Part shown: positions 2,788-64,000 of the stretch, piece by piece
Position numbering within the stretch: position 1 is the stretch's first letter
Layout of the letters: each line of letters opens with the position of its first letter
Assembly: GCA_045545855.1 (NCBI GenBank)
Contig: JAZQBR010000203.1
Location: 1,264 to 65,263 of the forward strand
Length of the DNA: 64,000 bases
Source of the DNA: Kiritimatiellia bacterium
Lineage (GTDB): Bacteria > Verrucomicrobiota > Kiritimatiellia > RFP12 > UBA1067
Direction: 5' to 3'
The notes under the pieces: model-generated
Told to the model about the DNA's origin: nothing
What the model saw: only the letters and a program-made list of their open reading frames with translations
The model's database searches: none
Position numbers and translations under genes: made by a program

Positions 2788-4407
2788 TCAAGCCTGCGCG
2801 AGCTCTTCCTGGAGCAGCCGTCTCGCGGCCCCCGGGCCCGACAGAAGCCTCAAGAAGAACCCCTCGATTTTCGCGGCGAGCGGCGTCGCGGCAAGGTCGC
2901 TGCCGAATATGGAGGCGTTCGAAAGAATGTCTTTCAGCTGCCCGCCGTAGCTCGAGGGGTCGTTCCAGACAATTCCTCCAAGCTTCGCCTGAAGCTCTTC
3001 CTTGAGCGGGTCTGCGCTGACCTCCATCGGTTCGCCCTTGTCGTCCACGGCGAGAAGATAGCGCATCCACCCCGCTATGGCGAGCGGTATTGCGACAAGC
3101 GTGTTCAAGTCGCGGCCCTCTGCCATGTAGCTCTTTATGGTCTCGCCGAAGCGTATGCCGACCTTCTGCGACGTGTCGGTCGCGATGCGCCTCGGGTCGT
3201 CGGGCATGAACGGGTTGGGCAGACGCTCGCCGACAACTTCGTCGATGAACGCCTTTGGCGAGAGTATCTTCGGGTCGACAACTACAGGCAGGTCCTCGAC
3301 ATAGCCGAGCCGCCTGACGAGCTTCACGATATCGGGGTCTTTCATCTCCTCGCAGATAAGCGTGTACCCCAGCAGACAGCCGTACATCGACATCGCCGTA
3401 TGTAGCGGATTGAGGCATGTCGTCACCTTCATGCGCTCCGTCTTGTTGACCGTCGCGCGGTCGGTCATGTAGACCCCGGCCTTTTCGAGCGCGGGCCGTC
3501 CGTTCGGGAACCGGTCTTCGACGACCAGATACTGCGGCTTTTCGGCGTTGACAAAAGGCGCGATGAACGTCTTTTTGGACGTGACGATAGGCGTCATGCC
3601 CTCGATGCCGTCCTTCTTCAGCGACTCTTCGACTATTGGATGAGGCCTTGGGGTGATCTTGTCTATCATCGACCAGGGGAAGGATACCACCGTCTCGTCC
3701 GTCACGTAGTCGAGATACTCCCGGCTGGCGAAACCGCTTTCGACCCAGGCCTTGGCGATCTCGACGACGGACGCCTTGAGTTTCTCGCCGTTGTGCGAGC
3801 AGTTGTCCATAGAAACGACAGCCAGCGGCAGACGGCCGGCCTTGAAGCGCTCCAGAAGGAGCGCGGCGACAATGCTCATCGCGTGGCGCGAGGCGGACGG
3901 GCCTTCTTTCATGTCGGCCTCTACGACCGGCATGAGCGAACCGTCTGGCCGGCGCAGTTGATAGCCTTTCTCGGTGATTGTGAAAGAAATCATCTTGAGC
4001 GAGGGCGAGCGGAACACCGCCTTGAGGCGCTCGACCGACGCCGCATCAGAGAAATCGGCCTTGACGCCTTCTGCGACGCCGGCGAGCACTTCGCGCGACG
4101 TCGTGCCGTCGGGGTTCAGCAGCACGTTCAGCGTCAGGCAGTCGAACGGCGCGTATATCTTGTCTATCACATCGTAGTCGAACGTATCGCAGGCGATGAT
4201 GCCCGTCTCGGCGAGCCCCGCGTTAAGCAGAGTCTGGCTTATCGAGCCAATGAAGCCGCGAAAGATGTTGCCGGCGCCGAAGTGCACCCACTCCGGGGCC
4301 TTGGCCGTCGCCTCGCGCATCTTGGCGATGTCGAATTTCGGCAGATTCACGCCGGCCTTCTGCCACGCGGCCGCGTCTTTGGTTATCGATTCGAGTGTGA
4401 GTTTCAT
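2788..4407 (-). CDS. Mannitol dehydrogenase family oxidoreductase (mannitol 2-dehydrogenase / D-mannonate-fructuronate reductase-like)
   Basis: 539 aa. N-terminal Rossmann motif WVHFGAGNIFRGF plus a long C-terminal domain typical of the long-chain mannitol DH family (UxuB/MtlK-like). Confidence 0.7.
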   Translation of the reverse strand: MKLTLESITKDAAAWQKAGVNLPKFDIAKMREATAKAPEWVHFGAGNIFRGFIGSISQTLLNAGLAETGIIACDTFDYDVIDKIYAPFDCLTLNVLLNPDGTTSREVLAGVAEGVKADFSDAASVERLKAVFRSPSLKMISFTITEKGYQLRRPDGSLMPVVEADMKEGPSASRHAMSIVAALLLERFKAGRLPLAVVSMDNCSHNGEKLKASVVEIAKAWVESGFASREYLDYVTDETVVSFPWSMIDKITPRPHPIVEESLKKDGIEGMTPIVTSKKTFIAPFVNAEKPQYLVVEDRFPNGRPALEKAGVYMTDRATVNKTERMKVTTCLNPLHTAMSMYGCLLGYTLICEEMKDPDIVKLVRRLGYVEDLPVVVDPKILSPKAFIDEVVGERLPNPFMPDDPRRIATDTSQKVGIRFGETIKSYMAEGRDLNTLVAIPLAIAGWMRYLLAVDDKGEPMEVSADPLKEELQAKLGGIVWNDPSSYGGQLKDILSNASIFGSDLAATPLAAKIEGFFLRLLSGPGAARRLLQEELAQA

Positions 4408-10730: not shown

Positions 10731-10952
10731 GGTTTTGGTCTGGTTCTGTCTTGTTTCTCGCCTGCTCTTGCCTGCCAAGCGCGTATTATACCATAACTTG
10801 CGCCTGTTTGTCCATGTGCCGTAGATTATAGCTACGAATAATCAGACATATAAACACATTTATCCAATGAATAAATCAATCTTAAAGCACCTTATCCAAA
10901 CGAATCAACGCCGAAGCCCCGCTCGGTCAAACCAAACGGGGCTTCTTGATAC

Positions 10953-11030
10953 AGCAAAGGCCGCCCTCTCGGACGGCCCTCAAATGCAATCAGGTAAAAC
11001 TCACACCTCTCTCCAACTCCAACTCATCTC
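10953..11030. repeat. Left copy of ~78-bp direct repeat (AGCAAAGGCCGCCCTCTCGGACGGCCCTCAAATGCAATCAGGTAAAACTCACACC...)
   Basis: Near-identical copy at 12856..12932. The two copies bracket the Abi_2 gene and mark the high-GC to low-GC transition. Confidence 0.6.
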
Positions 11031-11300
11031 TCCAACTCCCAACTCCTCCACTCCTAACTCCCTCACTCCCACACTTCGCTACTCCCTCACGCCCCCACTC
11101 CTTCACGTCTCTCCACGCTTTCACCAAATTGACAAGTCCCTTCTTCCTCTGCACCCGGCTCACAAACAACAATACCTTCTTACCATCTGCACGCTCTACA
11201 CGGCTCAAACTCCCCCACTCCCTCTCTCCCACACTCTCAACTCTACATGTTTCTACACGTTCTACACGGCTATTTATATTCACCCCCAGCGGAGCGGCAA
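11000..11300. repeat. Strand-asymmetric CT-rich microsatellite-like array (AACTCC/CACTCC units)
   Basis: Runs of ctccaactccaactcatctctccaactcccaactcctccactcctaactccctcactcc. Overlapping ORFs (10946..11368, 10867..11424) are low-complexity artefacts. Confidence 0.6.
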
Positions 11301-11806: not shown

Positions 11807-12856
11807 GTGCGGGGAATGTCCATAAAGGGCGCGTTTCTTTCTATGCAGATAACAGTCAAATCATCATACCCCAAGGGCTGGCTTGACTATGACGGCCAAG
11901 TCGAGAAACTGAAGAAGCGAGGTCTGAAAATTGACGATGTGGAATTTGCCAAGCAGTTCCTTGCGTATTCCAACTACTACCGATTTACTGGCTACTGCCT
12001 CCGATTCCAGCACAAGGACGAATCCGGCGAGCGCGTGTTCAATGACGGTGTTTCCGTCTCCGACATAATCGACATCTACAAAATTGACAAAGGCCTCCGA
12101 GATTGTGTTTCAGATGCACTCGGAGCGATTGAGATTAGTTTCCGTTCCGCCGTTGCATACCATTTTGCGGAGGCACACGGGGCTTTTGGACATACGATAA
12201 AGGAAAATTTCGTCCGTCCATTCATAATGCGCCGGACAGATGCAAATGGTCGAGAGCAGCCATCCCCTTATGACGAGTGGCATGAGGGTCTTGTCTCTGA
12301 AACGCGGCGTTCAAATGAATTGTTCGTCAAACATTTTGAGGCGAAATATCTCCAGTTCCCCGATCTTCCTATCTGGACTGCGCTTGAGATATGCTCCTTC
12401 GGAACACTCTCCAAGATGTTCAAGAATATGCTGCGGTTTGACATGAGACCTATCGCCGCAAGATATTCTCTTCAACCTTCGACGCTGGATTCATGCATGC
12501 ATTCCTTCGTCTATGTCCGCAACATATGTGCGCACCATAGCAGACTGTGGGACAAGGAATTCGCCATATCTCCACAACTGCCGCCCGGCAGGAAATGGGA
12601 TGTCGTGCGCAATGCGAACAAAAAGTTGTATGCGGTAGCGATGTTGGTAAATTGGATGCTCGCGCATGATTTCTTCGGGAAAGCGATGCATTCAAACTGG
12701 AAGAAACGTTTTGAGACCGTCGTCGACTCTCTCTTCGATAGATTCCCAGAACTAGCACACCACACAGGTATTCCCGCCGACTGGAAGAACCAAGAAATTT
12801 GGTCTTCCATCAAGCCGGCTCAACCGCCCACGGAACCTAACCCATCTTCACTATAG
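11807..12856 (+). CDS. Abortive infection protein, Abi_2 family (AbiD/AbiF-like)
   Basis: Conserved Abi_2 block LEICSFGTLSKMFKNM and the signature VRNICAHHSRLWDKEF. Alternative start at 11843 (MQITVKSSYPKGW). Confidence 0.75.
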   Translation: MRGMSIKGAFLSMQITVKSSYPKGWLDYDGQVEKLKKRGLKIDDVEFAKQFLAYSNYYRFTGYCLRFQHKDESGERVFNDGVSVSDIIDIYKIDKGLRDCVSDALGAIEISFRSAVAYHFAEAHGAFGHTIKENFVRPFIMRRTDANGREQPSPYDEWHEGLVSETRRSNELFVKHFEAKYLQFPDLPIWTALEICSFGTLSKMFKNMLRFDMRPIAARYSLQPSTLDSCMHSFVYVRNICAHHSRLWDKEFAISPQLPPGRKWDVVRNANKKLYAVAMLVNWMLAHDFFGKAMHSNWKKRFETVVDSLFDRFPELAHHTGIPADWKNQEIWSSIKPAQPPTEPNPSSL

Positions 12857-12932
12857 AGCAAAGGCCGCCCTCTCGGACGACCCTTAAAAGCAATCAGGTG
12901 ATACTCACACCACTCTACAACTCCAACTCAAA
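12856..12932. repeat. Right copy of ~78-bp direct repeat
   Basis: GAGCAAAGGCCGCCCTCTCGGACGACCCTTAAAAGCAATCAGGTGATACTCACACC... matches 10953..11030 with a few substitutions. Confidence 0.6.
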
Positions 12933-13020
12933 ACTCATCCACTCCTAACTCCCCCACTCCTAACTCCCCCACTCTCAACTCCTCCACTCTCAACTCCCCC
13001 ACTCACTCACTTTATACTTC
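12900..13020. repeat. Second CT-rich microsatellite-like array (AACTCC/CACTCT units)
   Basis: ctccaactcaaaactcatccactcctaactcccccactcctaactcccccactctcaactcctccactctcaactcccccactcactcac. Confidence 0.6.
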
Positions 13021-13376: not shown

Positions 13377-13426
13377 AAATGATAAAACAGGTCAGACCTA
13401 TTTTATCATTTTAGTCTTCGCGGGGC
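13377..13426. repeat. 50-bp direct repeat copy 1 containing a 13-bp perfect-arm palindrome (GATAAAACAGGTC/AGACCTATTTTATC)
   Basis: aaatgataaaacaggtcagacctattttatcattttagtcttcgcggggc. A second copy lies at 13551..13600. Confidence 0.55.
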
Positions 13427-13550: not shown

Positions 13551-13600
13551 AAATGATAAAATAGGTCAGACCTATTTTATCATTTTAGTCTTCGCAGGGC
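13551..13600. repeat. 50-bp direct repeat copy 2 with internal palindrome
   Basis: aaatgataaaataggtcagacctattttatcattttagtcttcgcagggc, 174 bp from copy 1. Confidence 0.55.
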
Positions 13601-19946: not shown

Positions 19947-20633
19947 TCATCTACGCCGCCAAGACTTAGTCTCAACAAACGGCGCTTTGATTATCTTTTC
20001 CACCAACGGATAAATACCGGCATAATGCGAAGCGTTCAGACATTCGGGGAATTGGCCATGCGTTGCAGCCCATGCCTTGGCTCGCCTAATTGCAACCTCT
20101 GTTTGCGTCATCTTCCCTACATCGAACTGTGCTCCGCTCTTGTGATCATACTTCGGCATCAACTTGTGCAACAGACCATGCAGTTCATGCCTATCGAGAG
20201 GGAAGTTGTCCATTTTAGAACCATCCTCTGTGCAGAGGACTCCCCAGATTTCTATACACGGCGACATGAACGCCACATGGATACGATAAAAAACATCACG
20301 CGATTCGCATCTAGCTATATCGCGGACCTTGCAATCATCATCGCATCTTTCCGGGCACTTCGTCAAAACCGACCTGACCTCCAACATCTCCTTAGCCTTC
20401 GCATCGTGGTCGAAAACAACCCATATTTCCGCATTGGGATTATGACGCAAGTCCTTGGCAACTTCGACAGCAAACCTCAAAGCTCGTTCCAACAGGACCA
20501 CGGGCGACGAGACGGATGGCTTCTGCACAATCCTAATGTCGCGATTCTTCGCCAAAGCCTGCAAGTAGCCCAGCTCCGTCTTGCCCTCATGAAAGAGGTA
20601 GATGACAGGCGAAACAGCATAATCATTCGCCAT
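19947..20633 (-). CDS. RloB-like protein (AbiLii-like partner of AAA_21 ATPase)
   Basis: N-terminal VIYLFHEGKTELGYLQAL resembles the RloB ilvcEGekTEpnYf motif. Overlaps the 3' end of the upstream ATPase gene. Internal ATG at 20633. Confidence 0.5.
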   Translation of the reverse strand: MANDYAVSPVIYLFHEGKTELGYLQALAKNRDIRIVQKPSVSSPVVLLERALRFAVEVAKDLRHNPNAEIWVVFDHDAKAKEMLEVRSVLTKCPERCDDDCKVRDIARCESRDVFYRIHVAFMSPCIEIWGVLCTEDGSKMDNFPLDRHELHGLLHKLMPKYDHKSGAQFDVGKMTQTEVAIRRAKAWAATHGQFPECLNASHYAGIYPLVEKIIKAPFVETKSWRRR

Positions 20634-21900
20634 ACACCATCTCCCCTCCCAAGCTAGGCAACGCGCCATACAACCCCTGCAGATAGCCCTTCTCTAGATT
20701 CTTGTCGTGCCTTGGCTGAAACTGGTAAAGCGAATAGAGGTCTGACGAACCATCAACACGCTTCTCGGCGAACCAAATCTCATCGGTCCGCCAAATGTCG
20801 TGCGTCATCAGGTTTGTATCATGCATGGTTATCACAAGTTGTGCGCCATCGGCCCTGCGTTCCATGAAAGACTTAAGGAGGTACTTCATCAATACAGGAT
20901 GAATATGACAATCAGCCTCGTCTATAAACCATGTTCCAGTGCCACGATGCAACTGATACAGCATCGGCGAGAGATGGATCAACCGCACAGTCCCGTCAGA
21001 TTCGGACTCCGCCCGCAACGGAACGCCATTGTGCTGCAGGCGAAATTCCTCACCACTAATTCCGTTGGCATCCTTTTTAATCAAATAAAATCCTCGGCTA
21101 ATGCCCAATACACGAGCACCATCCCCTTTGAAAGGATTCATATTGAATATAATCTCGGCTTCCTTGCTGGACAAAGGCTCCCACGAGAGATCCGTGACGC
21201 CCAAGTCCGCACGCTTCAACAGCTCAAGCAGAAACGTCTTGAAGTCTTCTTGTTTGATAAAGGTGTAGAACGCCGCTGGATTCGGACGCGACTCCGTGCC
21301 TAACACGAACATTTGACTAAGCCCGACATAAGCCGACAGGATTACATCGGCCATCGCGATATCCAATTTGTTTTCCCTCAAACCATCGGAAATCAACTTA
21401 GGCAGATATAGCAGATTATCCGCCAATGTCCGTTGCCTATACCACTCAGCCTTATCAAGTCGCTCATCAAGTCCAAGGCGAGTTCCATTCTCCCTGTCGA
21501 ACAGAATTGATTCCCGTTCGCCACTGACCTGCCAAAGGGTTTCCCTCTTGACCGCAAGTCCATCCGTAGCGACTGCATACCTGAACATCAAGCCTTCATT
21601 GGAAAAAACAATGTCGAATCTCATTTCCGGTCTAATAGATTCAGACAAAGCAAACTGCATCCCACGCACTACAGAGCAATCGCCACGAAAAACCATCTGC
21701 TGAAATAAATCGACAGCCTTAAGGAGATTGGACTTGCCAGATGCATTAGCACCATATATTGCAGCCCCTCGCAAGACTGAAATACCATTCACATCGCGAA
21801 TATGGTTCTCATGCCGCGAAGTCTTGCGACCAGCCTCCATTGAGAAAGAGACAGGCGCATCAAACGACAAGAAGTTCTCGATTGTGAGATTTATAAGCAT
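20623..21900 (-). CDS. AAA_21/ABC-type ATPase (AbiLi/RloA-like)
   Basis: Walker A GANASGKSN, Walker B/D-loop WFIDEADCHIHP, H-loop ITMHDTNLM. 425 aa. Confidence 0.7.
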   Translation of the reverse strand: MLINLTIENFLSFDAPVSFSMEAGRKTSRHENHIRDVNGISVLRGAAIYGANASGKSNLLKAVDLFQQMVFRGDCSVVRGMQFALSESIRPEMRFDIVFSNEGLMFRYAVATDGLAVKRETLWQVSGERESILFDRENGTRLGLDERLDKAEWYRQRTLADNLLYLPKLISDGLRENKLDIAMADVILSAYVGLSQMFVLGTESRPNPAAFYTFIKQEDFKTFLLELLKRADLGVTDLSWEPLSSKEAEIIFNMNPFKGDGARVLGISRGFYLIKKDANGISGEEFRLQHNGVPLRAESESDGTVRLIHLSPMLYQLHRGTGTWFIDEADCHIHPVLMKYLLKSFMERRADGAQLVITMHDTNLMTHDIWRTDEIWFAEKRVDGSSDLYSLYQFQPRHDKNLEKGYLQGLYGALPSLGGEMVYGE

Positions 21901-22028: not shown

Positions 22029-22844
22029 TCACCTAAACCACTTATAGCCGTAATAGCCGATGTACTCGTGGATGAACGAGTTATTGCGGGCGAAGGCGTC
22101 GAAGCTCGGCAACAGACCACGCCATTTGAAAGGTTCATCCTTCCACGGCAATGCCTGATAATCCGTCGCGGCCGGGATGCACTCTATCTCAGGCGCATAC
22201 TTTTTGAACATGTACAAGCTTCGTTTCATGTGACATGCGCTCGTCACCAACAATATACTTGGCTTCTTTGCGACCTCTGCTCCTTTGAGCCTCTGCGTTA
22301 CAATTTCTCCAACAAATTTTGCGTTCTCCTCGGTGTTCACCGCCTTGTCCTCCAACACAACAGCCTCACGCGGAACACCCAAATCCACAAGCAATTTCAC
22401 ATCCCCGAACTCGGCACCGACATTGCTTGAAATGACGATAGGCGCTTTCCCAGCCTTCCAGAGCCTTGCCGCATGCCATGGCCGGTCCGCCGCCTCATTC
22501 ATGCAGGCGTAGGGATAGCATTCGTCACCCCAAACGCCTCCGCCCATCAAAACAATCGCATCAGCTTTCGTCATATCCTCCGCCAACTGTACAGGGTAAT
22601 CCTCTTCAAGCGGCAACGCCAGCCAACCGCCGACAATCGGCATCGACCAAAACCAGAACCATGACAAGGCCGTTCCCAAAGTCCACATCACTGCTTTACG
22701 CTTTTTGAGCAGGGCAAACGTCTGCCCCAAGGCAACAGCCACAATGCCTACAAACAGCGGATTGGCGACAAAACCGACAATCTTATTTATCGTGTTCACA
22801 ATTTCATGCAACCATGTAGAACATGTAGAACGTATAGAAACCAA
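22029..22844 (-). CDS. YdcF/ElyC-like DUF218 family protein (start uncertain)
   Basis: ILLVTSACHMKRSLYMF and VLMGGGVW motifs of DUF218 with an N-terminal TM segment. The listed N-terminal residues STCSTWLHE are encoded by a CATGTAGAA repeat arm, so the true start is probably downstream. Confidence 0.55.
   Translation of the reverse strand: MVSIRSTCSTWLHEIVNTINKIVGFVANPLFVGIVAVALGQTFALLKKRKAVMWTLGTALSWFWFWSMPIVGGWLALPLEEDYPVQLAEDMTKADAIVLMGGGVWGDECYPYACMNEAADRPWHAARLWKAGKAPIVISSNVGAEFGDVKLLVDLGVPREAVVLEDKAVNTEENAKFVGEIVTQRLKGAEVAKKPSILLVTSACHMKRSLYMFKKYAPEIECIPAATDYQALPWKDEPFKWRGLLPSFDAFARNNSFIHEYIGYYGYKWFR
22812..22840. repeat. Solo arm of TGTAGAA-unit element (ccatgtagaacatgtagaacgtatagaa)
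   Basis: Three tandem (C/A)TGTAGAAC units with no inverted partner nearby, between the GT4 stop and the ydcF-like gene. Confidence 0.5.
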
Positions 22845-22864: not shown

Positions 22865-24130
22865 TCAACTGACCACTTCCCCGTAAATCTCCATTAGTCG
22901 CTTGTAGTTCGCTTCTTCTGAATATTTAGTTTCAGCCTCGTGCTTTGCCGCTGCACATACTTCGTCATAATCTGAACGCGACAGAAACCGCTTTATCGCC
23001 GCCGCACATGCCTCTGCATTGCCAGCCTCAAACACTTCACCGAAACGGTTTTCCTGCACGATCTCTGGCAAGGCACCAAGATTGCTCGTCACAACAGGCG
23101 TTCCCTCTAGCATTGATTCCACGACCGTCAATCCAAATGTCTCCCACCATTCACTTGGAAGGACAGTAGCCTTGGATTTAGCCATAAGACGGAGTACTTC
23201 AGCGGCTGATTTCAGGCCGACAAACTCAACATCCCCCCCGTCGGCAAGTTTCTCAAGCTCCTGCCGATCAACACCATCGCCGACTATTATCAGCTTGAGG
23301 TTATTTAACCATGTAGAACATGTAGGAGCATGTAGATGTTCTTTATGACAAATAATCTTGAAAGCCTTTATAAGAGTTTCGACACCTTTCTCTTTCGATA
23401 GCCGCCCAACATAAACTATCTGATCTTTCTTAAGGATGGGGGATGAGGGATGTGGGATGGGGGATGGGGGTGTTATTCTCATCCCTCCTATCTCATCTCG
23501 CATCCCTATCACAAAATTGCCCTTCACAGCAATTTTGTGTTCTGGCCAGCCATATTCAACCATCTTCCGCTTCTGGAACTCGCTCAGTACAATAAACCTT
23601 GAAACCCACTTTGGCAACCGCCTTCGATAAAGCGCAATGTTGATTGCAAGCGGCAATGTTGCCGCCAGACTTCCGCGATAGCAACGATACTTGATTCCAT
23701 CACATACACATCTCTTATCCAAACACAGCGAGCACACTTTCCCGTCCCTCGTCGGCACGCCTGCCGCACAAGCCATTCGATAGTTGTGTAGAGTCATCAC
23801 GACCTGCGCATACTTGCTCGCCGCACGAACCGCCAACGGGCTGATAAGCGGGAAGGTGTTATGGAAGTGAACGACATCCGGCTTGAATTCTCTACATTTC
23901 TTCGCAACCGCCCGCGCCGCGAACGGATTGCCGACCGTACACAGCGCCCCTTTGATTTTACCCAAGATCCTTTTAATTGCATTGCCGCACCGTATTTCAT
24001 CACTATGCCGGGCATATACAGCGACCTCATGTCCATGCTTCTCCAGCATGGCCTTCTCTGCCTCGAAGACCTTGTTCTCGCCTGACGGCGCCGATGAGCC
24101 ATAGTAGTTATGGACAAGGAGAATCCTCAT
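22865..24130 (-). CDS. Glycosyltransferase, GT4 family, carrying two in-frame repeat-element insertions
   Basis: MRILLVHNYYGSSAPSGENKVFE... N-domain and ...ETFGLTVVESMLEGTPVVTSNLGALPEIV C-domain. The segments HLHAPTCSTWLNN and ITPPSPIPHPSSPIL are encoded by repeat elements at 23301..23337 and 23435..23510. Confidence 0.7.
   Translation of the reverse strand: MRILLVHNYYGSSAPSGENKVFEAEKAMLEKHGHEVAVYARHSDEIRCGNAIKRILGKIKGALCTVGNPFAARAVAKKCREFKPDVVHFHNTFPLISPLAVRAASKYAQVVMTLHNYRMACAAGVPTRDGKVCSLCLDKRCVCDGIKYRCYRGSLAATLPLAINIALYRRRLPKWVSRFIVLSEFQKRKMVEYGWPEHKIAVKGNFVIGMRDEIGGMRITPPSPIPHPSSPILKKDQIVYVGRLSKEKGVETLIKAFKIICHKEHLHAPTCSTWLNNLKLIIVGDGVDRQELEKLADGGDVEFVGLKSAAEVLRLMAKSKATVLPSEWWETFGLTVVESMLEGTPVVTSNLGALPEIVQENRFGEVFEAGNAEACAAAIKRFLSRSDYDEVCAAAKHEAETKYSEEANYKRLMEIYGEVVS
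23301..23337. repeat. TGTAGAA-unit element arm inside GT4 CDS (tatttaaccatgtagaacatgtaggagcatgtagatg)
   Basis: Shares the TTTAACCATGTAGAAC terminus with the elements at 28984 and 34190 and is read in-frame. Confidence 0.55.
23435..23510. repeat. G-rich palindromic element (GGGATGAGGGATGTGGGATGGGGGATGGGGG ... CTCATCCCTCC...CATCCCTATC) inside GT4 CDS
   Basis: Tandem GGGATG units on the left and complementary CATCCC units on the right. Read in-frame (PPSPIPHPSSPI). Confidence 0.5.
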
Positions 24131-24600
24131 GTTTAATTAGCCGTGTAGAACGTGTAGATCGTGTAGAATTATGCGGTGATGGTACGACGCTCGAATTTAT
24201 AGGAACCAAAATTTACAAGAAGTCCAACAGGATGCCGCGTGATCTTCAAGTAGTTTATAATCTGGGCAAAGTGTTCAGGAGCAAACGTTTTAACGGCCTT
24301 AAGCTCAACTATCAAGCTATCATTTACAAACATGTCTACAAAATACTCCCCGACACAATATCCGTCCCTGTCGAACACTTTAAGCGGTTTTTGTCGTTCG
24401 ACTTTATAGCCCGCAATTACAAGCCTATGCTCCAAGGCCGCCTCATAAACCTTTTCCAGCAATCCCGTGCCAAAGTATTCATGCACCCCATACGCAATCT
24501 GACCTACATCAGCTGCCAGTTTCCTTAATTCATCAGCGCAACCATCCATACTTCCCACCTTCTGCACGTTTCTACACGTTCTACACGGTTAGAACCCTTC
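24131..24600. mobile_element. ~470-bp cassette bounded by inverted arrays of CGTGTAGAA units, carrying a GxxExxY gene
   Basis: Left terminus ttaattagCCGTGTAGAACGTGTAGATCGTGTAGAA (24133..24168). Right terminus cacgTTTCTACACGTTCTACACGGttagaacc (24561..24600) is its inverted complement. The left end abuts the GT4 start codon and the right end overlaps the 3' end of the kinase-like gene. Confidence 0.55.
24169..24549 (-). CDS. GxxExxY family protein (PD-(D/E)XK-like small protein)
   Basis: MDGCADELRKLAADVGQIAYGVHEYFGTGLLEKVYEAALEHRL... contains the GLLEKVY = GxxExxY motif. About 126 aa from ATG at 24549 (the ORF track begins at an upstream GTG). Confidence 0.65.
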   Translation of the reverse strand: MDGCADELRKLAADVGQIAYGVHEYFGTGLLEKVYEAALEHRLVIAGYKVERQKPLKVFDRDGYCVGEYFVDMFVNDSLIVELKAVKTFAPEHFAQIINYLKITRHPVGLLVNFGSYKFERRTITA

Positions 24601-25465
24601 CCCTCCTTCTACACGGATATGCATCAATTCCCAACAGCCCTTTGACCTGCTTCTTAAACCAGGATTCATCCTTGCCCTCGACCCACTGCCCTGCGTCTTC
24701 CCAATCCCAGACATACAATTTGCCATCCACGATAGAACAGTTCCACGGAGCAAAGTCGCCGTGCGACAAACCCGCCCTTCTCAATTCGTCCAGAAATACA
24801 TAATGCTCCTTCTGCATCCGAACAGGGCTTTTGCCTTTCGGCAATACCGACTGCGCACTCCATGTCCATGCCCCATCATGCCCGACATCGCCTATGGCAA
24901 CAGGTACTTGCGCACACAAAGGCGTCATCATCAGCCTTTTCAGCACGTCCACCTCTTCCCTGATCGCCTCTGCCGCCTTATCTGTCCTTCCCAACTTCAA
25001 TATGATTTCATTTGTGTTTAACACAGAGTCACAGAGACGCAGAGGATTGGGAGAGTCAGAAGAAATCTCTGTGCCTCTGTGCCTCTGTGTTAAAACCTTC
25101 ACCAGCACCGTCAACTTGGACTTCGCCGAATCGTTTCCCATATAAAGCGTTATCCACTCTATCTTCTTTGCGAACTTTGCGTTCTTTGCGGCTAAATCAT
25201 CTATCGCTTTCCCTATTACCTCGTGTCCATCCAGTTCATCAAACCGCTTGATTGGCCCATGAACCATCTTCTCGATGGGCAGCCATGCGAACCATCCCAG
25301 AACCTTTACAGCCCACTTCAGCACCTTGCGCCCTGGCGTGTGCATCGCCAGCCCTGCCCGCTTGCTTGCGGCAGATGAAAGGTCAATCCACACGCGCGGT
25401 TTCGGAGACGGAAGGCCAAGGAATCTGTGCATAGATATTTTCATGTGCACCTCATGATACAACAT
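24581..25465 (-). CDS. Phosphotransferase-family kinase-like protein (APH/choline-kinase fold)
   Basis: Brenner motif LSHGDFAPWN and DWE motif VWDWEDAG. An in-frame palindromic element lies at 25019..25092. The C-terminus overlaps the cassette TIR. Confidence 0.5.
   Translation of the reverse strand: MLYHEVHMKISMHRFLGLPSPKPRVWIDLSSAASKRAGLAMHTPGRKVLKWAVKVLGWFAWLPIEKMVHGPIKRFDELDGHEVIGKAIDDLAAKNAKFAKKIEWITLYMGNDSAKSKLTVLVKVLTQRHRGTEISSDSPNPLRLCDSVLNTNEIILKLGRTDKAAEAIREEVDVLKRLMMTPLCAQVPVAIGDVGHDGAWTWSAQSVLPKGKSPVRMQKEHYVFLDELRRAGLSHGDFAPWNCSIVDGKLYVWDWEDAGQWVEGKDESWFKKQVKGLLGIDAYPCRRRGRVLTV
25019..25092. repeat. Palindromic element built from CACAGAG units (cacagagtcacagagacgcagagg ... cctctgtgcctctgtg) inside CDS
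   Basis: Tandem 7-mers on the left, their complement on the right, and a ~25-bp loop. Translated in-frame within the kinase-like protein. Confidence 0.5.
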
Positions 25466-26390
25466 GCTTTAATCCCATTTTGAACAACCCACAAGAATTC
25501 CGTCTACCAATATCCAAAACGAGGCAAATCAAGTATGTAATCACCGATGTCGCACAGAACGCCGCCAAAATCCCCCAACCTTGTTTTTCGACAAGGCACA
25601 ACTCCAATCGCGACATCAAGGATAGGCCTCCAGAAGTGATGTGAAGAAGATACACCGCAAATGCTGATGGCGCAAGAAATAACACTATTCGTTCCATTGT
25701 CGATGGCATCTTCAACCGCCTAAAGAACTCAAAGGCGAAACAGGAAACGACAAACGCCGGGATCCACCAGTACCACCAGAATCCGGCCAGCATCGCTATC
25801 ACACATATCGGCAGCATCCAGATGGCGTTGCGCATCGTGCAGAAACGTCCCAAGTCCAATGACTTGTATAGCCGCACTGCTATATAAATACCGACAAGTG
25901 AAAGGAATGTGCATCCATCGAGTCCGCGCGGCGACGGAATCCAATCCCTGACATAAGGTATTGCACACATAACACCCCACGCATAAACAGCGAACAATAC
26001 AGGGGCTGACAAGATAAAAATCGTGCGCCCAACTTTACCGGCAAATGCGGCATCAATAAGTGGAGCAAGCATCATAAGCAACAGATAAGCCCACAGGAAC
26101 CAATAGCCGCAAATGCCTTTAATGGCATATAATGCCCCCGCCCCCCCTGCAATGTTTGACACAATAGCACACCAGATGCAGAGCGCGACCATATTCAGAC
26201 ACTTACGCACGTTGAACTTCACACCGAAATATCCAGATATAAACACAAACCCACATACGCACCAGTCAAGAATTGTCCAATGCGAACCGTCTTGTGGATA
26301 TGCACACTGCACTGCAGCATGCATGGCGACAATGCCAAACATCATCAAGAGCCGCATAAGCTCAAGCCCTGCGTTACGTTTCCCGTTCAT
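25452..26390 (-). CDS. Acyltransferase family 3 membrane protein (O-acyltransferase)
   Basis: N-terminal LELMRLLMMFGIVAMHA and a C-terminal SAFAVYLLH-type block, with about 10 TM helices. Confidence 0.7.
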   Translation of the reverse strand: MNGKRNAGLELMRLLMMFGIVAMHAAVQCAYPQDGSHWTILDWCVCGFVFISGYFGVKFNVRKCLNMVALCIWCAIVSNIAGGAGALYAIKGICGYWFLWAYLLLMMLAPLIDAAFAGKVGRTIFILSAPVLFAVYAWGVMCAIPYVRDWIPSPRGLDGCTFLSLVGIYIAVRLYKSLDLGRFCTMRNAIWMLPICVIAMLAGFWWYWWIPAFVVSCFAFEFFRRLKMPSTMERIVLFLAPSAFAVYLLHITSGGLSLMSRLELCLVEKQGWGILAAFCATSVITYLICLVLDIGRRNSCGLFKMGLKHVVS

Positions 26391-28983: not shown

Positions 28984-29228
28984 ATTTAACCATGTAGAGC
29001 GTGTAAAGTTATGCCGTAATTGTGCGACGCTTTAATTTGCACGAACCAAAGTTTACGAGAAGACCTGCAGCGTTATGAAGAGTCGATTCATAAGCCTTTT
29101 CAAATAAGTCATTCTCAAAATATTCGTATACATCATACGCCACTTGCCCTACTCCCGAAGCGAGTTCTCTCAATTCATCTACTTCATCCATGCACCACCT
29201 CCACTCTACACGATCTACACGGCTATAC
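28984..29228. mobile_element. Degenerate second copy of the CGTGTAGAA-TIR cassette with a decayed GxxExxY gene
   Basis: Termini tttatttaaccATGTAGAGCGTGTAaag (28984..29008) and cacctccactCTACACGATCTACACGGctatac (29195..29226). The internal sequence is homologous to 24165..24330 but carries a deletion. Confidence 0.5.
29009..29191 (-). pseudogene. GxxExxY gene remnant (internal deletion)
   Basis: MDEVDELRELASGVGQVAYDVYEYFENDLFEKAYESTLHN...AGLLVNFGSCKLKRRTITA parallels the intact copy (…VGLLVNFGSYKFERRTITA) but lacks ~35 central residues. The listed ORF 29009..29305 reads through the flank. Confidence 0.5.
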
Positions 29229-32860: not shown

Positions 32861-33907
32861 TTACGCCCTTCCCCCTGTCAACAAATTGAATATCCTCGGC
32901 GAACAACGCTTTGAAAGGAGGCCGACAAGGAGCGCCCCCCCCATCCCAGACAAGATTTTAAGGAGATACATCGTCAACGTTTGCAGATGAAACGCCAGCC
33001 CAACCCGTAACGCCACGGAAATCATCAATGTGTGGATTGCATAGATAAAGAACGTTAATCCGACAAATCTCCTGCTCAATGGCGATACACGATCAACCAT
33101 TTGCAGATTGGCAAACACTGCACACACGCCAGAGAAGACAAGCACTTTGTCTGCAATGTCAAACGCCATTTTGTTGCGATACACGCCGAACAAGACCTTG
33201 CAAACAATACTTGTGCAGAATATGGCAAGCACAAGATGTCTTCTATCGACAAGTGTTTTTCGCAATTCTAAGAAACTGTCGGCATCGCGCATTCTGAATC
33301 CAACCCATGATCCAACTGCGAGCCACAAGAAATTACCTGCGGCAAGCGGCAACGGCAGATAGTACCAGAACGTGCCTATCCACCCGGCAAGGAAGACGCA
33401 AATCAATACCACCCCATGCAATTTGTTCCGCAATAACGGAAGAATCAGGGGCGCAGCAAGCACATATATGAAAACTGTCTGCAAATACCAGAACTGCATG
33501 CAGCCAAGGCGGACATATGGGTCATAACCAAAAATCTTCGCCATAATTGACAAACCTTCATGCAATTCCCCAGACAGAAGCGCAAGCGCAAGATAAATGG
33601 CGTTCCATAGAACGAATGGAACATACAGCGTGATGAGTCGCTTCCTTATTTCATTGGTAAACCATGTGAACCATCCATTGCCCGGATATCCCTTGACAAG
33701 GAAGAACCCCGTGATCGTGAAGAAGATCGGTACGGCTATTCGTGGAACCGTGTATGTCCCCAGAAAATAGAACGCCGCCTCCAATTTGCCGACAGGCATC
33801 TCCCCAGCGAACCACGGCGCCATAGACTGGCAATGGATCGCGACAACAAGCAATGCGCACAGGAAAGCCACCGTGCGCAGACGCTCGCTTGTCTTGGCGG
33901 ATATCAT
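32861..33907 (-). CDS. Acyltransferase family 3 membrane protein
   Basis: N-terminal RTVAFLCALLVVAIHCQSM, with about 10 TM helices. A homopolymeric G-run encodes MGG near the C-terminus. Confidence 0.7.
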   Translation of the reverse strand: MISAKTSERLRTVAFLCALLVVAIHCQSMAPWFAGEMPVGKLEAAFYFLGTYTVPRIAVPIFFTITGFFLVKGYPGNGWFTWFTNEIRKRLITLYVPFVLWNAIYLALALLSGELHEGLSIMAKIFGYDPYVRLGCMQFWYLQTVFIYVLAAPLILPLLRNKLHGVVLICVFLAGWIGTFWYYLPLPLAAGNFLWLAVGSWVGFRMRDADSFLELRKTLVDRRHLVLAIFCTSIVCKVLFGVYRNKMAFDIADKVLVFSGVCAVFANLQMVDRVSPLSRRFVGLTFFIYAIHTLMISVALRVGLAFHLQTLTMYLLKILSGMGGALLVGLLSKRCSPRIFNLLTGGRA

Positions 33908-35196
33908 TTGCCTCGCTCCTGTTTGACAACGTTTTCAAGCGCGGCAATGTAACGCTTCACGACAGCGGTCATCATGAATCGTTCTTTCACGTTCCTTACG
34001 GCATTGCCAGACATCTTTGCCCTCGCCGAATAATCAAGCATCAAGTTCTCGATGCATTCCGCCAACTTCTCTGGTCTTGTTACGTTGCATACGACACCGC
34101 CCGCAACGGATGATTCCGATCTTTCCTTTTCATTTAGCCGTGTAGAACAGGGAGAACATGAAGGATTTTCTACACGCTCTACATTTTCTACATGGTTAAA
34201 TCCATCGATTCCCAACACCCACGGCACCGCGCCACTCTTCTCGCCGCCGACGCACGGGACTCCATGCGCCATCGCCTCTATGAAAACCATGCCAAAACTC
34301 TCTTCCAAGGACGGACTGCAAAATACATCCGCCTCTTTCTGCAACGCTCGCCGTATCATCTCCGAAGAGCCATAACCTCGCAACTCTATGCACCCGGAAT
34401 CGATGAGACGACCCATGCCATTCTGCCGCATCCAAGGATCGGCACCGCGTTGATCCATATAATGTCCATACACCACCAGCCGCCATTCCGGGTGTCTCGC
34501 ATGGAGCAGCGCAAATGCCTTGAAAAGCGTCTTAGAGTTCTTGAGGCGACCCCACTGCGTGACACACAATATCGTCCGCGCTTCGAGGCGGATTTCAATC
34601 CTGCCGGCCTGGGCGGTTTCTTCCTTAATGGCATTTGGAATAATCTCCACCGGCTTGCGATAGAAGTTGAAGTTTCGCAGATCTTCCGCCATGTGCGGAG
34701 AAACGGTAGCCATGTGCTTGACATGTGGAAAAACAAAGAACTGTGAATATATCGCCTTGAAAAGCGATGCGGCATTGCGCATTGTCCATACGACCCGCCA
34801 AGGAGAGTCATGCGCCACAACAAGCGTTGGAACGCCACTTTTCAGAGCAGCACGTGCATACTGATATGTCCAGTTCGCCAGTATGACATCCGGCTTTGCC
34901 TTATGTATTTCGTCAACCATACATGACACTTCTTTTGAATAGAACGTCATGTATTGATAGCGGCAACGTCTTTCGGGAACAATCCTGATCTCCAGACGGC
35001 CAGCCGTATAGGTGGTTGCCGCGGAATGGTTCATGTCTGTGACGACTACAGAAACCTCATGCCCGGAATCAACCAATGCAGCGACCAGATCGCTTCCGTA
35101 GTTGAAATCCCATCTGACGGACGGCAATTGCCTGTCGAACTTGAATCGTTCTGCAAGACAAGACAGCGTGACACGCCCTAAAAACGCTATCTTCAT
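33904..35196 (-). CDS. Glycosyltransferase, GT4 family, with an in-frame miniature CGTGTAGAA-TIR element
   Basis: Starts at MKIAFLGRVTLSCL (ATG at 35196). C-domain ...ADVFCSPSLEESFGMVFIEAMAHGVPCVGGE... The segment GFNHVENVERVENPSCSPCSTRLNEKERSE is encoded by the element at 34133..34202. Confidence 0.65.
   Translation of the reverse strand: MKIAFLGRVTLSCLAERFKFDRQLPSVRWDFNYGSDLVAALVDSGHEVSVVVTDMNHSAATTYTAGRLEIRIVPERRCRYQYMTFYSKEVSCMVDEIHKAKPDVILANWTYQYARAALKSGVPTLVVAHDSPWRVVWTMRNAASLFKAIYSQFFVFPHVKHMATVSPHMAEDLRNFNFYRKPVEIIPNAIKEETAQAGRIEIRLEARTILCVTQWGRLKNSKTLFKAFALLHARHPEWRLVVYGHYMDQRGADPWMRQNGMGRLIDSGCIELRGYGSSEMIRRALQKEADVFCSPSLEESFGMVFIEAMAHGVPCVGGEKSGAVPWVLGIDGFNHVENVERVENPSCSPCSTRLNEKERSESSVAGGVVCNVTRPEKLAECIENLMLDYSARAKMSGNAVRNVKERFMMTAVVKRYIAALENVVKQERGK
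34133..34202. mobile_element. Miniature (~70 bp) cargo-less copy of the CGTGTAGAA-TIR element (MITE-like) inside a CDS
   Basis: tttagCCGTGTAGAACagggagaacatgaaggattTTCTACACGCTCTACATTTTCTACATGGTTAAAtcc. Both termini match those of the 24131 and 28984 cassettes, with only ~20 bp between arms. Confidence 0.55.
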
Positions 35197-35606
35197 CTCT
35201 TGCCTCCAAGCAATGCAGGACAAAATCTCAATATTGCGACAGAAGCAACCCAGCTGACGCATATAGTCGCAAACATAATGCCGCAAAGCAGAATCGCAAG
35301 ACTTCCGCCAGTCAGGATGCATCCAGATGGCAATAAGCGGACGGACGCGACGATGATGAATTTATGCAATAGCATTATTCCGAGCGAACATTCCCCTATG
35401 CGCTTCCAAAGTGGATTCGAGAGGCATCCCGCGATGCCGGCAGACAGCGCAGCGCCGACAAGTCCGGACATCCATGCGATGTAACTGAACATAATCCTGT
35501 TAGACCAACCATTATCGTGCAACCAGTTAACCGACATGGCCACAGCCACAATGACAGGCACCCCAAGCATGCTCCACATCCCCCGGCAAACGACTTGCAT
35601 CATATC
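35193..35606 (-). CDS. Possible small polytopic membrane protein downstream of wzy (start uncertain; may be an acyltransferase C-terminal remnant)
   Basis: The listed ORF 35193..35912 overlaps the wzy-like gene by ~190 bp. Its distal 135 aa (MMQVVCRGMWSMLGVPVIVAVAM...IMLLHKFIIV...) are strongly hydrophobic. Confidence 0.25.
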   Translation of the reverse strand, partial: DMMQVVCRGMWSMLGVPVIVAVAMSVNWLHDNGWSNRIMFSYIAWMSGLVGAALSAGIAGCLSNPLWKRIGECSLGIMLLHKFIIVASVRLLPSGCILTGGSLAILLCGIMFATICVSWVASVAILRFCPALLGGKR

Positions 35607-48986: not shown

Positions 48987-49061
48987 CTCACGCAAAGTCC
49001 GTGACGTACGCAAAGTTTCATCCCTCAGGCGCCTTTGCGTCTTTAGCGGACTTTGCGTGAG
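48987..49061. repeat. Palindromic element of ACGCAAAG units (tctcacgcaaagtccg...cgcaaag ... ctttgcgt...cggactttgcgtgag), 10 bp after the stop codon
   Basis: Perfect 15-bp outer inverted repeat and inner CGCAAAG/CTTTGCG pairs. No downstream U-tract. Confidence 0.5.
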
Positions 49062-61159: not shown

Positions 61160-61560
61160 GCGGTTATTGAGCGAAATGGGAGGTGAATCTTCGCCTTTCA
61201 AGCGAGTTACTGACCCCAGTGGGCAAAAGCGCCACCCCCTCGGAGGGGGTGAAGCGAAGCGCCCCCACTACATCGCGACACCCCCTCTGGCAGGGTAGCG
61301 CGACCCTGCCAGGCAGGGTGTACCCGACCCTGCCGGGCGGGGTGGCGCGACCCCGTCCGGCACCCAAAGGCGACCCCGCCAGAGGGGGGCGAGGTTCTTG
61401 CCTCAAGGACGAAATCGTCGCAGGACCCACTACCGCTACCACTAAACCTACCGCTCGGGCCGCCCGGTGGTCGGCCCCTACCGTTTGGGGCACACCTCAA
61501 TCCTGTCAATCCTGTTAATCCTGTCAAAACCTCTACACCTCTACACGGCCAAAAATCCGC
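61160..61560. repeat. GC-rich repeat-dense intergenic region (CGACCCTGCC(A/G)GGC(A/G)GGGT units, CTACCGCT units, CAATCCTGT x3, CTCTACAC x2)
   Basis: Read directly. ORFs 61164..61493, 61183..61518 and 61207..61527 here are frame artefacts. Shares a ~30-bp block TCGGGCCGCCCGGTGGTCGGCCCCTACCG with 63360..63390. Confidence 0.5.
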
Positions 61561-61592: not shown

Positions 61593-61655
61593 CTCGTTTG
61601 TCTATTCGTAAAATTTTGTTCAAATAAGCAAAAAACGACCCCGCGCGTTGCTTAA
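61593..61655. repeat. ~60-bp direct repeat, left copy (gtctattcgtaaaattttgttcaaataagcaaaaaacgaccccgcgcgttgcttaatt)
   Basis: A near-identical copy lies at 63117..63180. The two bracket the DUF4143 ATPase gene. Confidence 0.65.
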
Positions 61656-63116: not shown

Positions 63117-63180
63117 TCGGTCTATTCGTAAAATTTTGTTCAAATAAGCAAAAAACCACCCCGCGCGTTGCTTAATTCAA
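63117..63180. repeat. ~60-bp direct repeat, right copy
   Basis: gtctattcgtaaaattttgttcaaataagcaaaaaaccaccccgcgcgttgcttaatt. Confidence 0.65.
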
Positions 63181-63299: not shown

Positions 63300-63560
63300 G
63301 ACAAAAGTTCTGGTACCATCGGGCTGCACCCCTGCTAGGGCATCCGCTTCGCGGCTCACTGCACTCGGGCCGCCCGGTGGTCGGCCCCTACCGCTACGCC
63401 TTTCCGCGACCGCTACACCTACCGCTCGGGCTGCACCCATGCTAGGGCATCCGCTTCGCGGACAGCCTTCGGCTGGGGGATACCAGTGATCGGCCCCTAC
63501 CGCTACGCCTACACCTACCGTGCGGGCTGCTCGGTGATCAGCCCCTACCGCTAAATCCTA
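63300..63560. repeat. Tandem ~105-bp GC-rich repeats (two-plus units containing GCTAGGGCATCCGCTTCGCGG and CCCCTACCGCTAC)
   Basis: Units at about 63320..63425 and 63416..63535 share long identical blocks. Related blocks lie at 61440..61490. Confidence 0.55.
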
Positions 63561-63563
63561 CCG

Positions 63564-64000
63564 CTAGCCCAGCATAATCATCTGGCCGCGGACGGAGAAG
63601 GCGTCGCGGACGAGCCCTTTCGCCGCAGAACGTTCGCGCTCGCCCAGCCAGCCGAACGGCGCGAGCCACACCACCGGGGCCGGGGCCGCGCCTTGGTTCA
63701 TCGCGCAGACAAACGCCGCCAGAAACATCATCTTCTCGCCGTTGTCGACCAGCGCGAACGGGGTGCCGCCGGGGGCGATGTCGCCCTGATGGCGAACTGT
63801 CAGAACGGGCGCGCCTTTCTCGCCGGGCTCGACCGCATAGCCCGTCAGCGACGGACACACCCGTTGGAGTGCCGCGCGCATCGCCGAGGCGACCTGCCCG
63901 TTCGAAAGCTGCGCCGCCATGCAGGTCGCAAAGTCCGAAAAATCCCCTTCTTCGCCCTTCGCCCCGGCGCGGCCGATTTCGCTTCTCATCGCGTTCGGGT
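63564..64000 (-). CDS. Hypothetical protein (partial; N-terminus may lie beyond window end), high-GC core-genome gene
   Basis: ORF 63564..63989 (141 aa) with GC-rich codon usage resuming after the island. No motif recognised. Confidence 0.35.
   Translation of the reverse strand, partial: PNAMRSEIGRAGAKGEEGDFSDFATCMAAQLSNGQVASAMRAALQRVCPSLTGYAVEPGEKGAPVLTVRHQGDIAPGGTPFALVDNGEKMMFLAAFVCAMNQGAAPAPVVWLAPFGWLGERERSAAKGLVRDAFSVRGQMIMLG

Follow-up and report, generated by a model that had tools for sequence, protein, structure and literature searches.

Between positions 24131 and 24600 of a 64,000-nt stretch of a Kiritimatiellia bacterium genome (assembly GCA_045545855.1, contig JAZQBR010000203.1, positions 1,264 to 65,263 of the forward strand; hereafter the window) lies a cassette made of a single gene of the GxxExxY family flanked by inverted arrays of 9-mers. 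We consider it probable, at about 60%, that this is a selfish element made of a nuclease gene and its cognate terminal repeats, accompanied by derivatives akin to miniature inverted-repeat transposable elements (MITEs). The evidence for this reading includes the change of the repeat unit with the clade of the protein, the limits of homology, which between cassettes in unrelated contexts does not extend past the outer array ends, and the joint conservation of gene and arrays.

Structure of the cassette

Direct reading of the sequence gives a single minus-strand open reading frame (ORF) between the two inverted arrays. Its ATG at 24549 specifies a protein of 126 aa, the TAA stop occupying 24169-24171; starting instead from the GTG at 24567, which falls within the upstream array, would give 132 aa. 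In the sense of the gene, the unit runs TTCTAACC-GTGTAGAAC-GTGTAGAAA-CGTGCAGAA-GGTGGGAAGT-ATG, 126 codons, TAA-TTCTACACG-ATCTACACG-TTCTACACG-GCTAATTAAAC-ATG. The second ATG (24130) belongs to the GT4 glycosyltransferase gene, the downstream array being wedged between this codon and the stop codon of the nuclease gene. Each end is made of three 9-mers closed by TTA(A/G)CC, and the two ends are inverted: on the plus strand, 24132-24168 reads TTTAATTAGCC followed by CGTGTAGAA CGTGTAGAT CGTGTAGAA, and 24560-24594 reads TTCTGCACG T TTCTACACG TTCTACACG GTTAGAA, its inverted counterpart. With at most one mismatch allowed, the window contains 38 copies of the 9-mer CGTGTAGAA, compared with 9.3 +/- 2.9 in shuffled sequences, and none of the 100 shuffles reached 38. 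The extra single unit at 24607-24616, upstream of the cassette, is also found in the orthologous contig L240.

A scan that does not cover the promoter types of this phylum found neither a sigma-70-like promoter nor an intrinsic terminator in the cassette. Since, in addition, about 70-80% of the neighbouring long ORFs share the orientation of the GxxExxY gene, these data suggest that its transcription rides on read-through from the host operon.

Contig L240 is also the closest relative, with a cassette ~99% identical to that of the window. When it is compared with positions 23700-24700, the 5' region of the GT4 gene beside the cassette is ~88-90% identical over ~200 nt, after which identity recovers, and this suggests a recombination mosaic adjoining the cassette. 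On the other side, the stop codon of the APH-like ORF (24581-25465) falls within the TGTAGA array.

A predicted PD-(D/E)XK nuclease

The gene had been classed from its motif as a GxxExxY protein of the PD-(D/E)XK nuclease-like group, and this assignment is borne out by profile matches, an intact core and a matching predicted fold. The ORF matches TIGR04256 ('GxxExxY') with 114.8 bits (cut-off 35, E 2.7e-33) and PF13366 (PDDEXK_3) with 112.1 bits (cut-off 22, E 2.6e-32). The latter is the only Pfam family matched by this sole ORF of the cassette, which belongs to none of the DDE, HUH, serine or tyrosine transposase classes, and a unit of ~460 bp is too short for a second gene. Residues G29, E32, Y35, D72, E82-L83-K84, Q96 and Y100 are invariant in 20 sequences with identities down to 56%. 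We take E32, D72 and E82-x-K84 to be the canonical metal-binding core, and the QxxxY motif to be that of RecB/Cas4-type nucleases. The AlphaFold2 model (pLDDT 79, pTM 0.75) has the order alpha-alpha-beta-beta-beta-alpha-beta (elements H-H-E-E-E-H-E-E). Its top Foldseek matches in the Protein Data Bank (PDB), all weak (E >= 1e-3, TM 0.4-0.5), are mostly PD-(D/E)XK proteins, namely Cas4 SSO0001, splicing endonucleases, lambda exonuclease and Hjc, and the catalytic domain of I-Bth0305I appears at rank 41. On the strength of this model, the GxxExxY protein is predicted to have a restriction-endonuclease-like fold of the PD-(D/E)XK type.

A search of the PDB by sequence returned no significant relative of the 126-aa protein, and viral contigs yielded no close one. 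PADLOC gave no significant defence-system match, the best being to an uncharacterised candidate model (E 0.0013, 16.6 bits). A survey of the superfamily in 2012 gave the function of PF13366 as 'Unknown' (PMC3424549). The family is large: at E <= 1e-10 the protein search returned over 4,000 relatives, the best 120 of which are 77-98% identical to the query, and a scan of 1.84 billion representatives gave 9,680 clusters (50% identity) of the PF13366/TIGR04256 family at E <= 1e-3. Many of 150 family representatives are extended at the N or C terminus by what are evidently translated arrays (TEHTEH, NPVNPV, LCVLCV, SVSSV, HVEHVE).

Pairing of protein clades with repeat units

The comparison comprised 10 loci for one relative and 79 loci from a metagenome scan, among which 71 homologous genes were testable. 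The flanking inverted repeat beats all shuffles in 64 of these 71 loci. An inverted-repeat score of at least 15 is reached by 83% of the genes and by none of 203 offset segments of equal size taken from the same loci (Mann-Whitney p = 7e-29). A proposed check had been whether GxxExxY genes elsewhere are flanked in the same way; nearly all of them are, with units that are specific to each clade.

More precisely, 43 of the 45 loci whose protein is at least 71% identical to that of the window have (G/A)TGTAGA 9-mers. Proteins at 60-66% identity go with a TGTAGA core at 8-nt spacing or with GGGAGA units, and those at 54-59%, from soil and freshwater, with CA(A/G)AGA units in 18 of 21 loci (TTTAACC-GCAAAGAAC-GCAAAGAAC.../...TCTTTGCGGTTAAA). 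The second large rumen clade, at 41% identity, has TTTTAAC-GCAGAGTC-GCAGAGGC-GCAGAG on one side and CTCTGCGC-CTCTGCGC-CTCTGCGTTGAAAA on the other, its arrays running TTTTAACGCAGAG.../...CTCTGCGTTGAAAA. At 40% identity we find ACGAAAT units (ACGAAATAC), and at 36%, in the cultured Bacteroides finegoldii, ACAGAGG units (TTCACC-ACAGAGGAC-GCAGAGGAC / GTCCTCTGTGGTGAA). What all these unit families retain is the outer TT(T)A(A/G)C(C), and the inner 3-4 bases of each unit vary. The comparison shows protein clade and repeat unit to be specifically paired, in at least six unit families.

Estimates of synonymous divergence (dS) by the Nei-Gojobori method were saturated for most pairs, and identities per codon position were used instead. 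When the window copy is set against cassettes at 84-89% protein identity, identity amounts to 0.85-0.95 at codon positions 1 and 2 and to 0.37-0.39 at position 3; for the pairs in which dS could be estimated, dN/dS stays below 0.1, which marks strong purifying selection on the protein. In the same comparisons the arrays are 88-100% identical over ~30 nt (upstream 88-94%, downstream 90-100%). As position 3 is near saturation and yet the arrays have hardly diverged, both gene and arrays are under constraint, and jointly so.

A few loci show further variation in their arrays. The downstream array at ~1882-1920 has 3 CTCTGCGC units in L210 and 4 in L213 and L218, contigs that are otherwise near-identical and come from different samples, which points to arrays also changing by gain or loss of units. 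In the pseudopilin operon of L220, a direct duplication of ~70 nt flanks the cassette (~1330-1500 and 1885-1990); the duplicated segment is the leader of the downstream gene and includes a right-type array. Finally, a Fusobacteria plasmid (L230) has the gene between 24-nt repeats that are direct, not inverted (~1100-1190 and 1590-1630).

Discreteness and mobility

Three cassettes with 92-93% nucleotide identity (L131, L135, L138) occur in three unrelated contexts, and their homology begins at the TTTAGCC of the left array and ends at the GGTTAAA of the right one. The 31-40 close cassettes (at least 71% protein identity) fall into 20-21 distinct flank clusters, and all loci together into ~40. 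Some cassettes lie in capsule or O-antigen-type operons, others in housekeeping operons such as fabD-fabG (Sphingomonas) and radA (Bacteroides). Those of the second rumen clade lie between the methylase and restriction genes of a restriction-modification operon, and in a pseudopilin operon. One contig (L161) has more than one GxxExxY gene. A scan of ~1.4 Mb of fetched loci for ORFs of 70-260 codons between inverted repeats yielded GxxExxY genes, ORFs antisense to them and chance hits, and nothing else; nor does any transposase-like gene recur beside the arrays in these loci. A regex search for four-helix-bundle proteins of the type found in 23S rRNA intervening sequences found none.

The copies within the window form a decay series, from the full cassette to an internal deletion, a gene-less inverted pair and solo arrays (Table 1). 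The remnant at ~29009-29200 keeps only residues ~12-47 and 106-132 according to tblastn, and the catalytic core (~48-105) is gone. The inverted pair at 34133-34202 breaks the Pfam GT4 match of the gene 33907-35322 at residue 374 and folds into a hairpin of -23 kcal/mol (z -4.7 to -5.1). The solo module at 23300-23335 is missing from the orthologues P0393, P0417 and P0435, and others hold a different translated array at this place. All five further sites of the original prediction (22812, 23301, 28984/29226, 34133/34202 and 61536) do hold arrays; its list lacked those at 11182-11205 and 11242-11276.

Orthologous sites in other genomes differ in the same manner. A coding sequence of L097 contains an in-frame pair, and one of L074 a solo module, where L010 and L011, respectively, have none; L151 and L160 hold a full cassette where L076 has a solo module; and a TGTAGA pair in L081 corresponds to an array of a different family in L105. 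Sequence alignments show decay derivatives and the presence or absence of modules at orthologous sites. Judged by its unrelated contexts, by the outer limits of homology and by the decay series, the cassette shows itself to be a discrete unit that has moved, in line with the mobile unit first proposed.

Gene-less modules

A scan of a genome collection for CCRTGTAGAACRTGTAGA found at least 120 loci, mostly in metagenome-assembled genomes (MAGs) of Kiritimatiellia type from rumen and gut, with a few chance hits in unrelated taxa. The logo of 273 distinct instances is conserved only from -7 to +27 and has sharp borders, which delimits a module of ~34 nt reading TTTTAG-CC-GTGTAGAAC-RTGTAGAAC-GTGTAGA. 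The module consists of TTTARCC and three direct 9-mers without internal dyad, and hairpins form from pairs of modules only. The termini had been described as inverted 9-mer arrays preceded by TTTAA(TT/CC); the arrays stand, but the logo fits TTTA(A/G)CC better than this motif. Solo modules make up most of the instances, and abutting inverted pairs are a minority that fold as hairpins (z -4.7 to -6.8). Hybrid pairs in L024 (~2880-3000 and 3610-3720) and L099 (~2080-2200) have a TGTAGA left arm and a CTTTGCG or CTCTGCG right arm, and these arms do not pair.

Modules inside coding sequences are in frame, as stop-free multiples of 3. An alignment of orthologues of the GT4 gene 22865-24130 reveals two linker hot spots, after KGNFV and after AFKI, where orthologues at 75-92% have HVEHVDHVE, RVEHVERVE, SVSSVYSVVKN, LEHAERAE...LHDLHVLHG, or no insertion.

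Three accounts of the modules were rejected. The right array could serve as the start context of the next gene, but an ATG-initiated ORF lies within 25 nt of 14% of 235 right-type modules, against 8.5% at random; abutting the next start codon is true of many gene-carrying cassettes and is not a property of the module. Nested insertion does not account for multiplied modules, as copy numbers vary independently on each side (1-3 vs 1-3). Intron-like excision of coding-sequence modules at the RNA level is at odds with stop-free multiples of three that are apparently translated. No Rfam family matched in the window, including rRNA and intron RNA.

Proposed mechanism and alternative explanations

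In the reading that we favour, the unit would be a promoter-less gene for a PD-(D/E)XK protein of ~125 aa between two inverted modules of ~34 nt (TTTA(A/G)CC and three 9-mers). The modules would be the cognate recognition sites of the nuclease, as suggested by the pairing of protein and repeat, the matched ends of each element and their joint conservation. The nuclease would cut at or near the modules, and host recombination or repair would then copy or move the cassette; we regard this route as the likeliest since a nuclease cannot join DNA. The arrays of ~30 nt could be the homologous stretches by which the gene is copied into gene-less pairs, in a homing-like manner, and transposon-like excision and insertion would be an alternative within the same model. 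The same nuclease activity may sustain the larger gene-less population of internal deletions, inverted pairs and solo modules. These derivatives would settle between the genes of operons and in frame in coding sequences, the latter because the units are 9 nt long and stop-free in some frames. We infer that the nuclease itself is the mobilising enzyme, and likewise its binding to DNA, its cleavage site and the mechanism of joining. A broader proposition, which we advance tentatively, is that GxxExxY proteins may be the enzymes of an unrecognised, phylum-spanning class of mobile elements, in which a ~125-aa PD-(D/E)XK nuclease that recognises clade-specific, iteron-like arrays of 8-9-mers would, with host repair alone, propagate the ~460-bp cassette and the far more numerous 34-nt modules, the latter spreading through operons and entering proteins in frame.

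Several observations weigh against the selfish cassette. The original prediction took gene and arrays to go together, and this holds from gene to array; in the other direction, a GxxExxY gene is adjacent in 1 of 120 array loci among the matches listed. A gene thus nearly always comes with arrays and an array seldom with a gene, as for MITEs relative to autonomous elements, or for repetitive extragenic palindromes (REPs) relative to REP-associated tyrosine transposases (RAYTs). Solo modules, and not pairs, predominate, and the nuclease-cassette model does not account for their spread to new sites, coding sequences included, for the independent multiplication of modules on each side of the gene, or for hybrid pairs. 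Different array families occupy one orthologous site, hybrid pairs with arms from different unit families exist, and a few relatives depart from the rule, with direct flanking repeats or outward-facing arrays (L230, L016, L220). A lone PD-(D/E)XK nuclease cannot join DNA, so that mobility must lean on host functions. No consistent direct repeat that would represent a target-site duplication was found in the filled and empty pairs compared, all at most 95% identical, and TTAR beside the arrays fits an inverted repeat at least as well as a duplication. For the same range of identities, an exact empty site could not be defined in the comparisons of orthologous sites. The GT4 protein of the window has no exact database record; its closest orthologues (89-92%) have other upstream neighbours and no clean empty site among them, and the relative at 98% (P0001) lies at the same site as in the window. 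Some cassettes occupy one site shared by several species in which synonymous divergence is saturated, and this looks like long vertical residence of these copies and not frequent movement. The comparison data, moreover, come wholly from metagenome assemblies or MAGs.

Some of these points also speak for the arrays being an independent family, similar to MITEs or REPs, moved by an unlinked enzyme or created by a host process; the GxxExxY gene would then not mobilise them, being a passenger or a homing-type gene directed at arrays already in place. Most arrays are far from any GxxExxY gene, solo modules dominate, hybrid pairs occur and array families swap at one site; these genomes also have many more short tandem-array families with no known partner, and gene-less pairs resemble uninterrupted cassette flanks, as a homing site would. 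We nevertheless judge this unlikely. An unlinked enzyme leaves unexplained the clade-specific pairing of protein and unit in at least six unit families, down to 36-41% identity, and the conservation of gene-adjacent arrays far beyond that of synonymous sites. The ~1.4 Mb scanned had no other recurrent cargo or transposase-like gene beside the arrays, and a pure passenger is not expected to retain invariant catalytic residues.

It is more improbable still that the inverted arrays serve as hairpins, as functional RNA or for regulation in cis, around a nuclease gene that benefits the host within a polycistronic transcript, with roles such as processing, stabilisation or insulation, as for rRNA intervening sequences, and a recurrence due to their usefulness between cistrons. 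The location of cassettes between co-oriented genes without promoter or terminator of their own would suit such a role, as would the stable hairpins of inverted pairs (z -4.7 to -6.8), the strong, long-term purifying selection on protein and arrays and the stable residence at some sites. Yet the commonest form, the sharp-bordered solo module, cannot make a hairpin, the arms of hybrid pairs are not complementary, and a stem needs no tandem periodicity of 8-9 nt; modules in coding sequences are apparently translated and not excised, and the cassette has ~40 unrelated contexts and no Rfam match. As for low-complexity slippage or an assembly artefact without any biological unit, the 3 versus 4 units between near-identical contigs, the local multiplication of whole modules and the shortness of many contigs speak for it. 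This explanation is effectively refuted by the excess of 9-mers (38 against 9.3 expected, reached by no shuffle), by the sharp-bordered ~34-nt module, of which many independent assemblies, with cultured Bacteroides included, supplied 273 distinct instances, and by an inverted arrangement that is confined to the flanks of a single gene family (83%, with 0% in controls).

Relation to known systems

By analogy, the closest known logic is that of REP/REPIN-RAYT systems, in which REPs accompany RAYTs (PMC3116915, PMC3337134), but their defining features failed in the comparison. In both cases a gene lies between inverted copies of a short, lineage-specific repeat, the repeat is dispersed as singlets and inverted doublets that far outnumber the gene, and both persist for long under purifying selection. 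In contrast to RAYTs, which are HUH/Y1 proteins of the IS200/IS605 type, the cassette gene encodes a PD-(D/E)XK protein of ~125 aa (PF13366) without a Y1_Tnp match. Its repeat is TTTARCC with three 8-9-mers and is not palindromic, whereas a REP is an imperfect palindrome; its modules also occur in frame in coding sequences, and the gene can recur on one contig.

Bacterial transposons with terminal inverted repeats are known to have MITE derivatives, as in IS630-Spn1/RUP, Correia/NEMIS and Chunjie in Geobacter. The cassette shares with them the terminal inverted repeats, the internal deletions and miniature derivatives, the non-disruptive insertion in operons and the hairpin transcripts. It differs by having no DDE or other known transposase and no target-site duplication that we could find, by ends that are iteron-like tandem arrays, and by the predominance of solo half-elements. 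The homing endonucleases I-Ssp6803I and I-Bth0305I, of a kind that is free-standing or borne on introns, are likewise small PD-(D/E)XK nucleases in selfish inserts, and the abutting gene-less pairs that we observe resemble a candidate uninterrupted target, one that insertion of the gene would split. However, the cassette has no intron or intein and is intergenic in ~40 contexts, its putative target is a dispersed repeat and not a unique conserved site in a gene, and the PDB sequence search revealed no kinship of its protein with these enzymes.

Rickettsia palindromic elements are selfish DNA within protein-coding genes. Like them, the modules are short repeats that can be in frame and translated as extra peptides at tolerant loops; unlike them, they have a candidate partner enzyme and lie mostly between genes, and the sequences are unrelated. 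TnsA of Tn7 is a PD-(D/E)XK nuclease acting at transposon ends that have multiple sub-terminal protein-binding repeats, but it needs the DDE protein TnsB and accessory proteins, for which a ~460-bp unit without a second gene has no counterpart. The ORFs of 23S rRNA intervening sequences, which reside in a helix of the rRNA gene and are cut out by RNase III, differ in setting, as the window has no rRNA and the neighbours of the cassette are protein-coding.

We found no description of an association between GxxExxY genes and repeats in the open-access full texts searched, and an earlier description elsewhere is possible; within this literature, the view that the pairing is undescribed holds. The PF13366/TIGR04256 family would gain a testable role, in which each nuclease is sequence-specific and has the repeats at its flanks as partners, and the presence of small nuclease genes within conserved operons (fabD-fabG, restriction-modification, polysaccharide loci) would be explained. 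A PD-(D/E)XK enzyme class would thereby be added to the logic of REP-RAYT systems and MITEs. In rumen Kiritimatiellae and other phyla, a conspicuous share of the intergenic repeats and of the in-frame peptide insertions may be due to the modules. They also call for caution in annotation, where they can give spurious ORFs and N-terminal extensions (peptides of RVERVE, HVEHVE or LCVLCG type). Small clade-specific pairs of protein and DNA could also serve as programmable recognition modules. If the more tentative proposition of a new element class were true, a family of ~10^4 sequence clusters would have a function, and bacterial proteins a new source of peptide insertions.

Other features of the window

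The window-wide analysis covered 64 kb with 51.5% G+C from a Kiritimatiellia-like organism of rumen type, and the nearest named proteins are from Kiritimatiellae MAGs. The setting of the cassette is a polysaccharide-type cluster on the minus strand.

Table 1. The cassette, its derivatives and the neighbouring genes, in positions of the window
Feature	Position	Strand	Remarks
GxxExxY / PD-(D/E)XK nuclease-like gene, intact, 126 aa	24169-24549	minus	TIGR04256 and PF13366 matches
Upstream (5', gene sense) terminal array	24560-24594	minus	gene sense TTCTAACC GTGTAGAAC GTGTAGAAA CGTGCAGAA
Downstream (3') terminal array	24132-24168	minus	gene sense TTCTACACG ATCTACACG TTCTACACG GCTAATTAAA
Extra single 9-mer unit	24607-24616	minus	gene sense CCGTGTAGAA; upstream of cassette, in 3' end of ORF 24581-25465
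Internally deleted cassette	28984-29225	minus	arrays 28984-29008 and 29195-29225
Gene-less inverted pair, MITE-like	34133-34202	minus	in frame, 69 nt, encodes FNHVENVERVENPSCSPCSTRLN, within GT4 gene 33907-35322
Solo module	23300-23335	minus	in frame, encodes ...HLHAPTCSTWLNN..., within GT4 gene 22865-24130
Solo module	22806-22841	minus	intergenic, GT4 stop codon to DUF218 gene
Two solo modules	11182-11205 and 11242-11276	minus	intergenic field of other short tandem arrays
Degenerate solo module	61532-61551	minus	minus sense GGCCGTGTAGAGGTGTAGAGG; intergenic, beside array of ATCCTGTCA units
GT4 glycosyltransferase gene	22865-24130	minus	neighbour on downstream side of cassette
DUF218 gene	beyond GT4 stop codon	minus	same cluster
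APH-like ORF	24581-25465	minus	member of gene cluster of cassette
Acyltransferase gene	25452-26390	minus	member of gene cluster of cassette

Other array families are present in the window. The APH-like ORF has two in-frame insertions of other array families, an inverted pair at 25017-25094 (TTTTAACACAGAGGCACAGAGGCACAGAG...CTCTGCGTCTCTGTGACTCTGTGTTAAA, hairpin of -40 kcal/mol) and a solo GATTTAGCCGCAAAGAACGCAAAGTTCGCAAAGAAG at ~25191-25226. An inverted pair of CGCAAAG-type units lies at 48987-49061 (CTCACGCAAAGTCCG.../...CGGACTTTGCGTGAG; hairpin of -40 kcal/mol, z -6.5). Two related intergenic array fields, at 10930-11280 and 12834-13012, have purine-rich minus-strand units of GGAGTT and GGGAGT types, and each adjoins an 84%-identical segment of 97 nt with the hairpin GGCCGCCCTCTCGGACGGCC. 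CTACCGC-type units surround the hairpin GGGCCGCCCGGTGGTCGGCCCC at 61427-61497 and 63337-63564, and a segment of 58 nt (61600-61657) is repeated at 98% identity 1.5 kb away (63120-63177). Two near-identical sequences of 35 nt (AAATGATAAAACAGGTCAGACCTATTTTATCATTT), each palindromic, lie 174 nt apart at 13377-13411 and 13551-13585. Directly downstream of the polysaccharide cluster, a minus-strand gene at 20623-21900 encodes an AAA_21 / AbiEii-like ATPase (Pfam E 4e-20).

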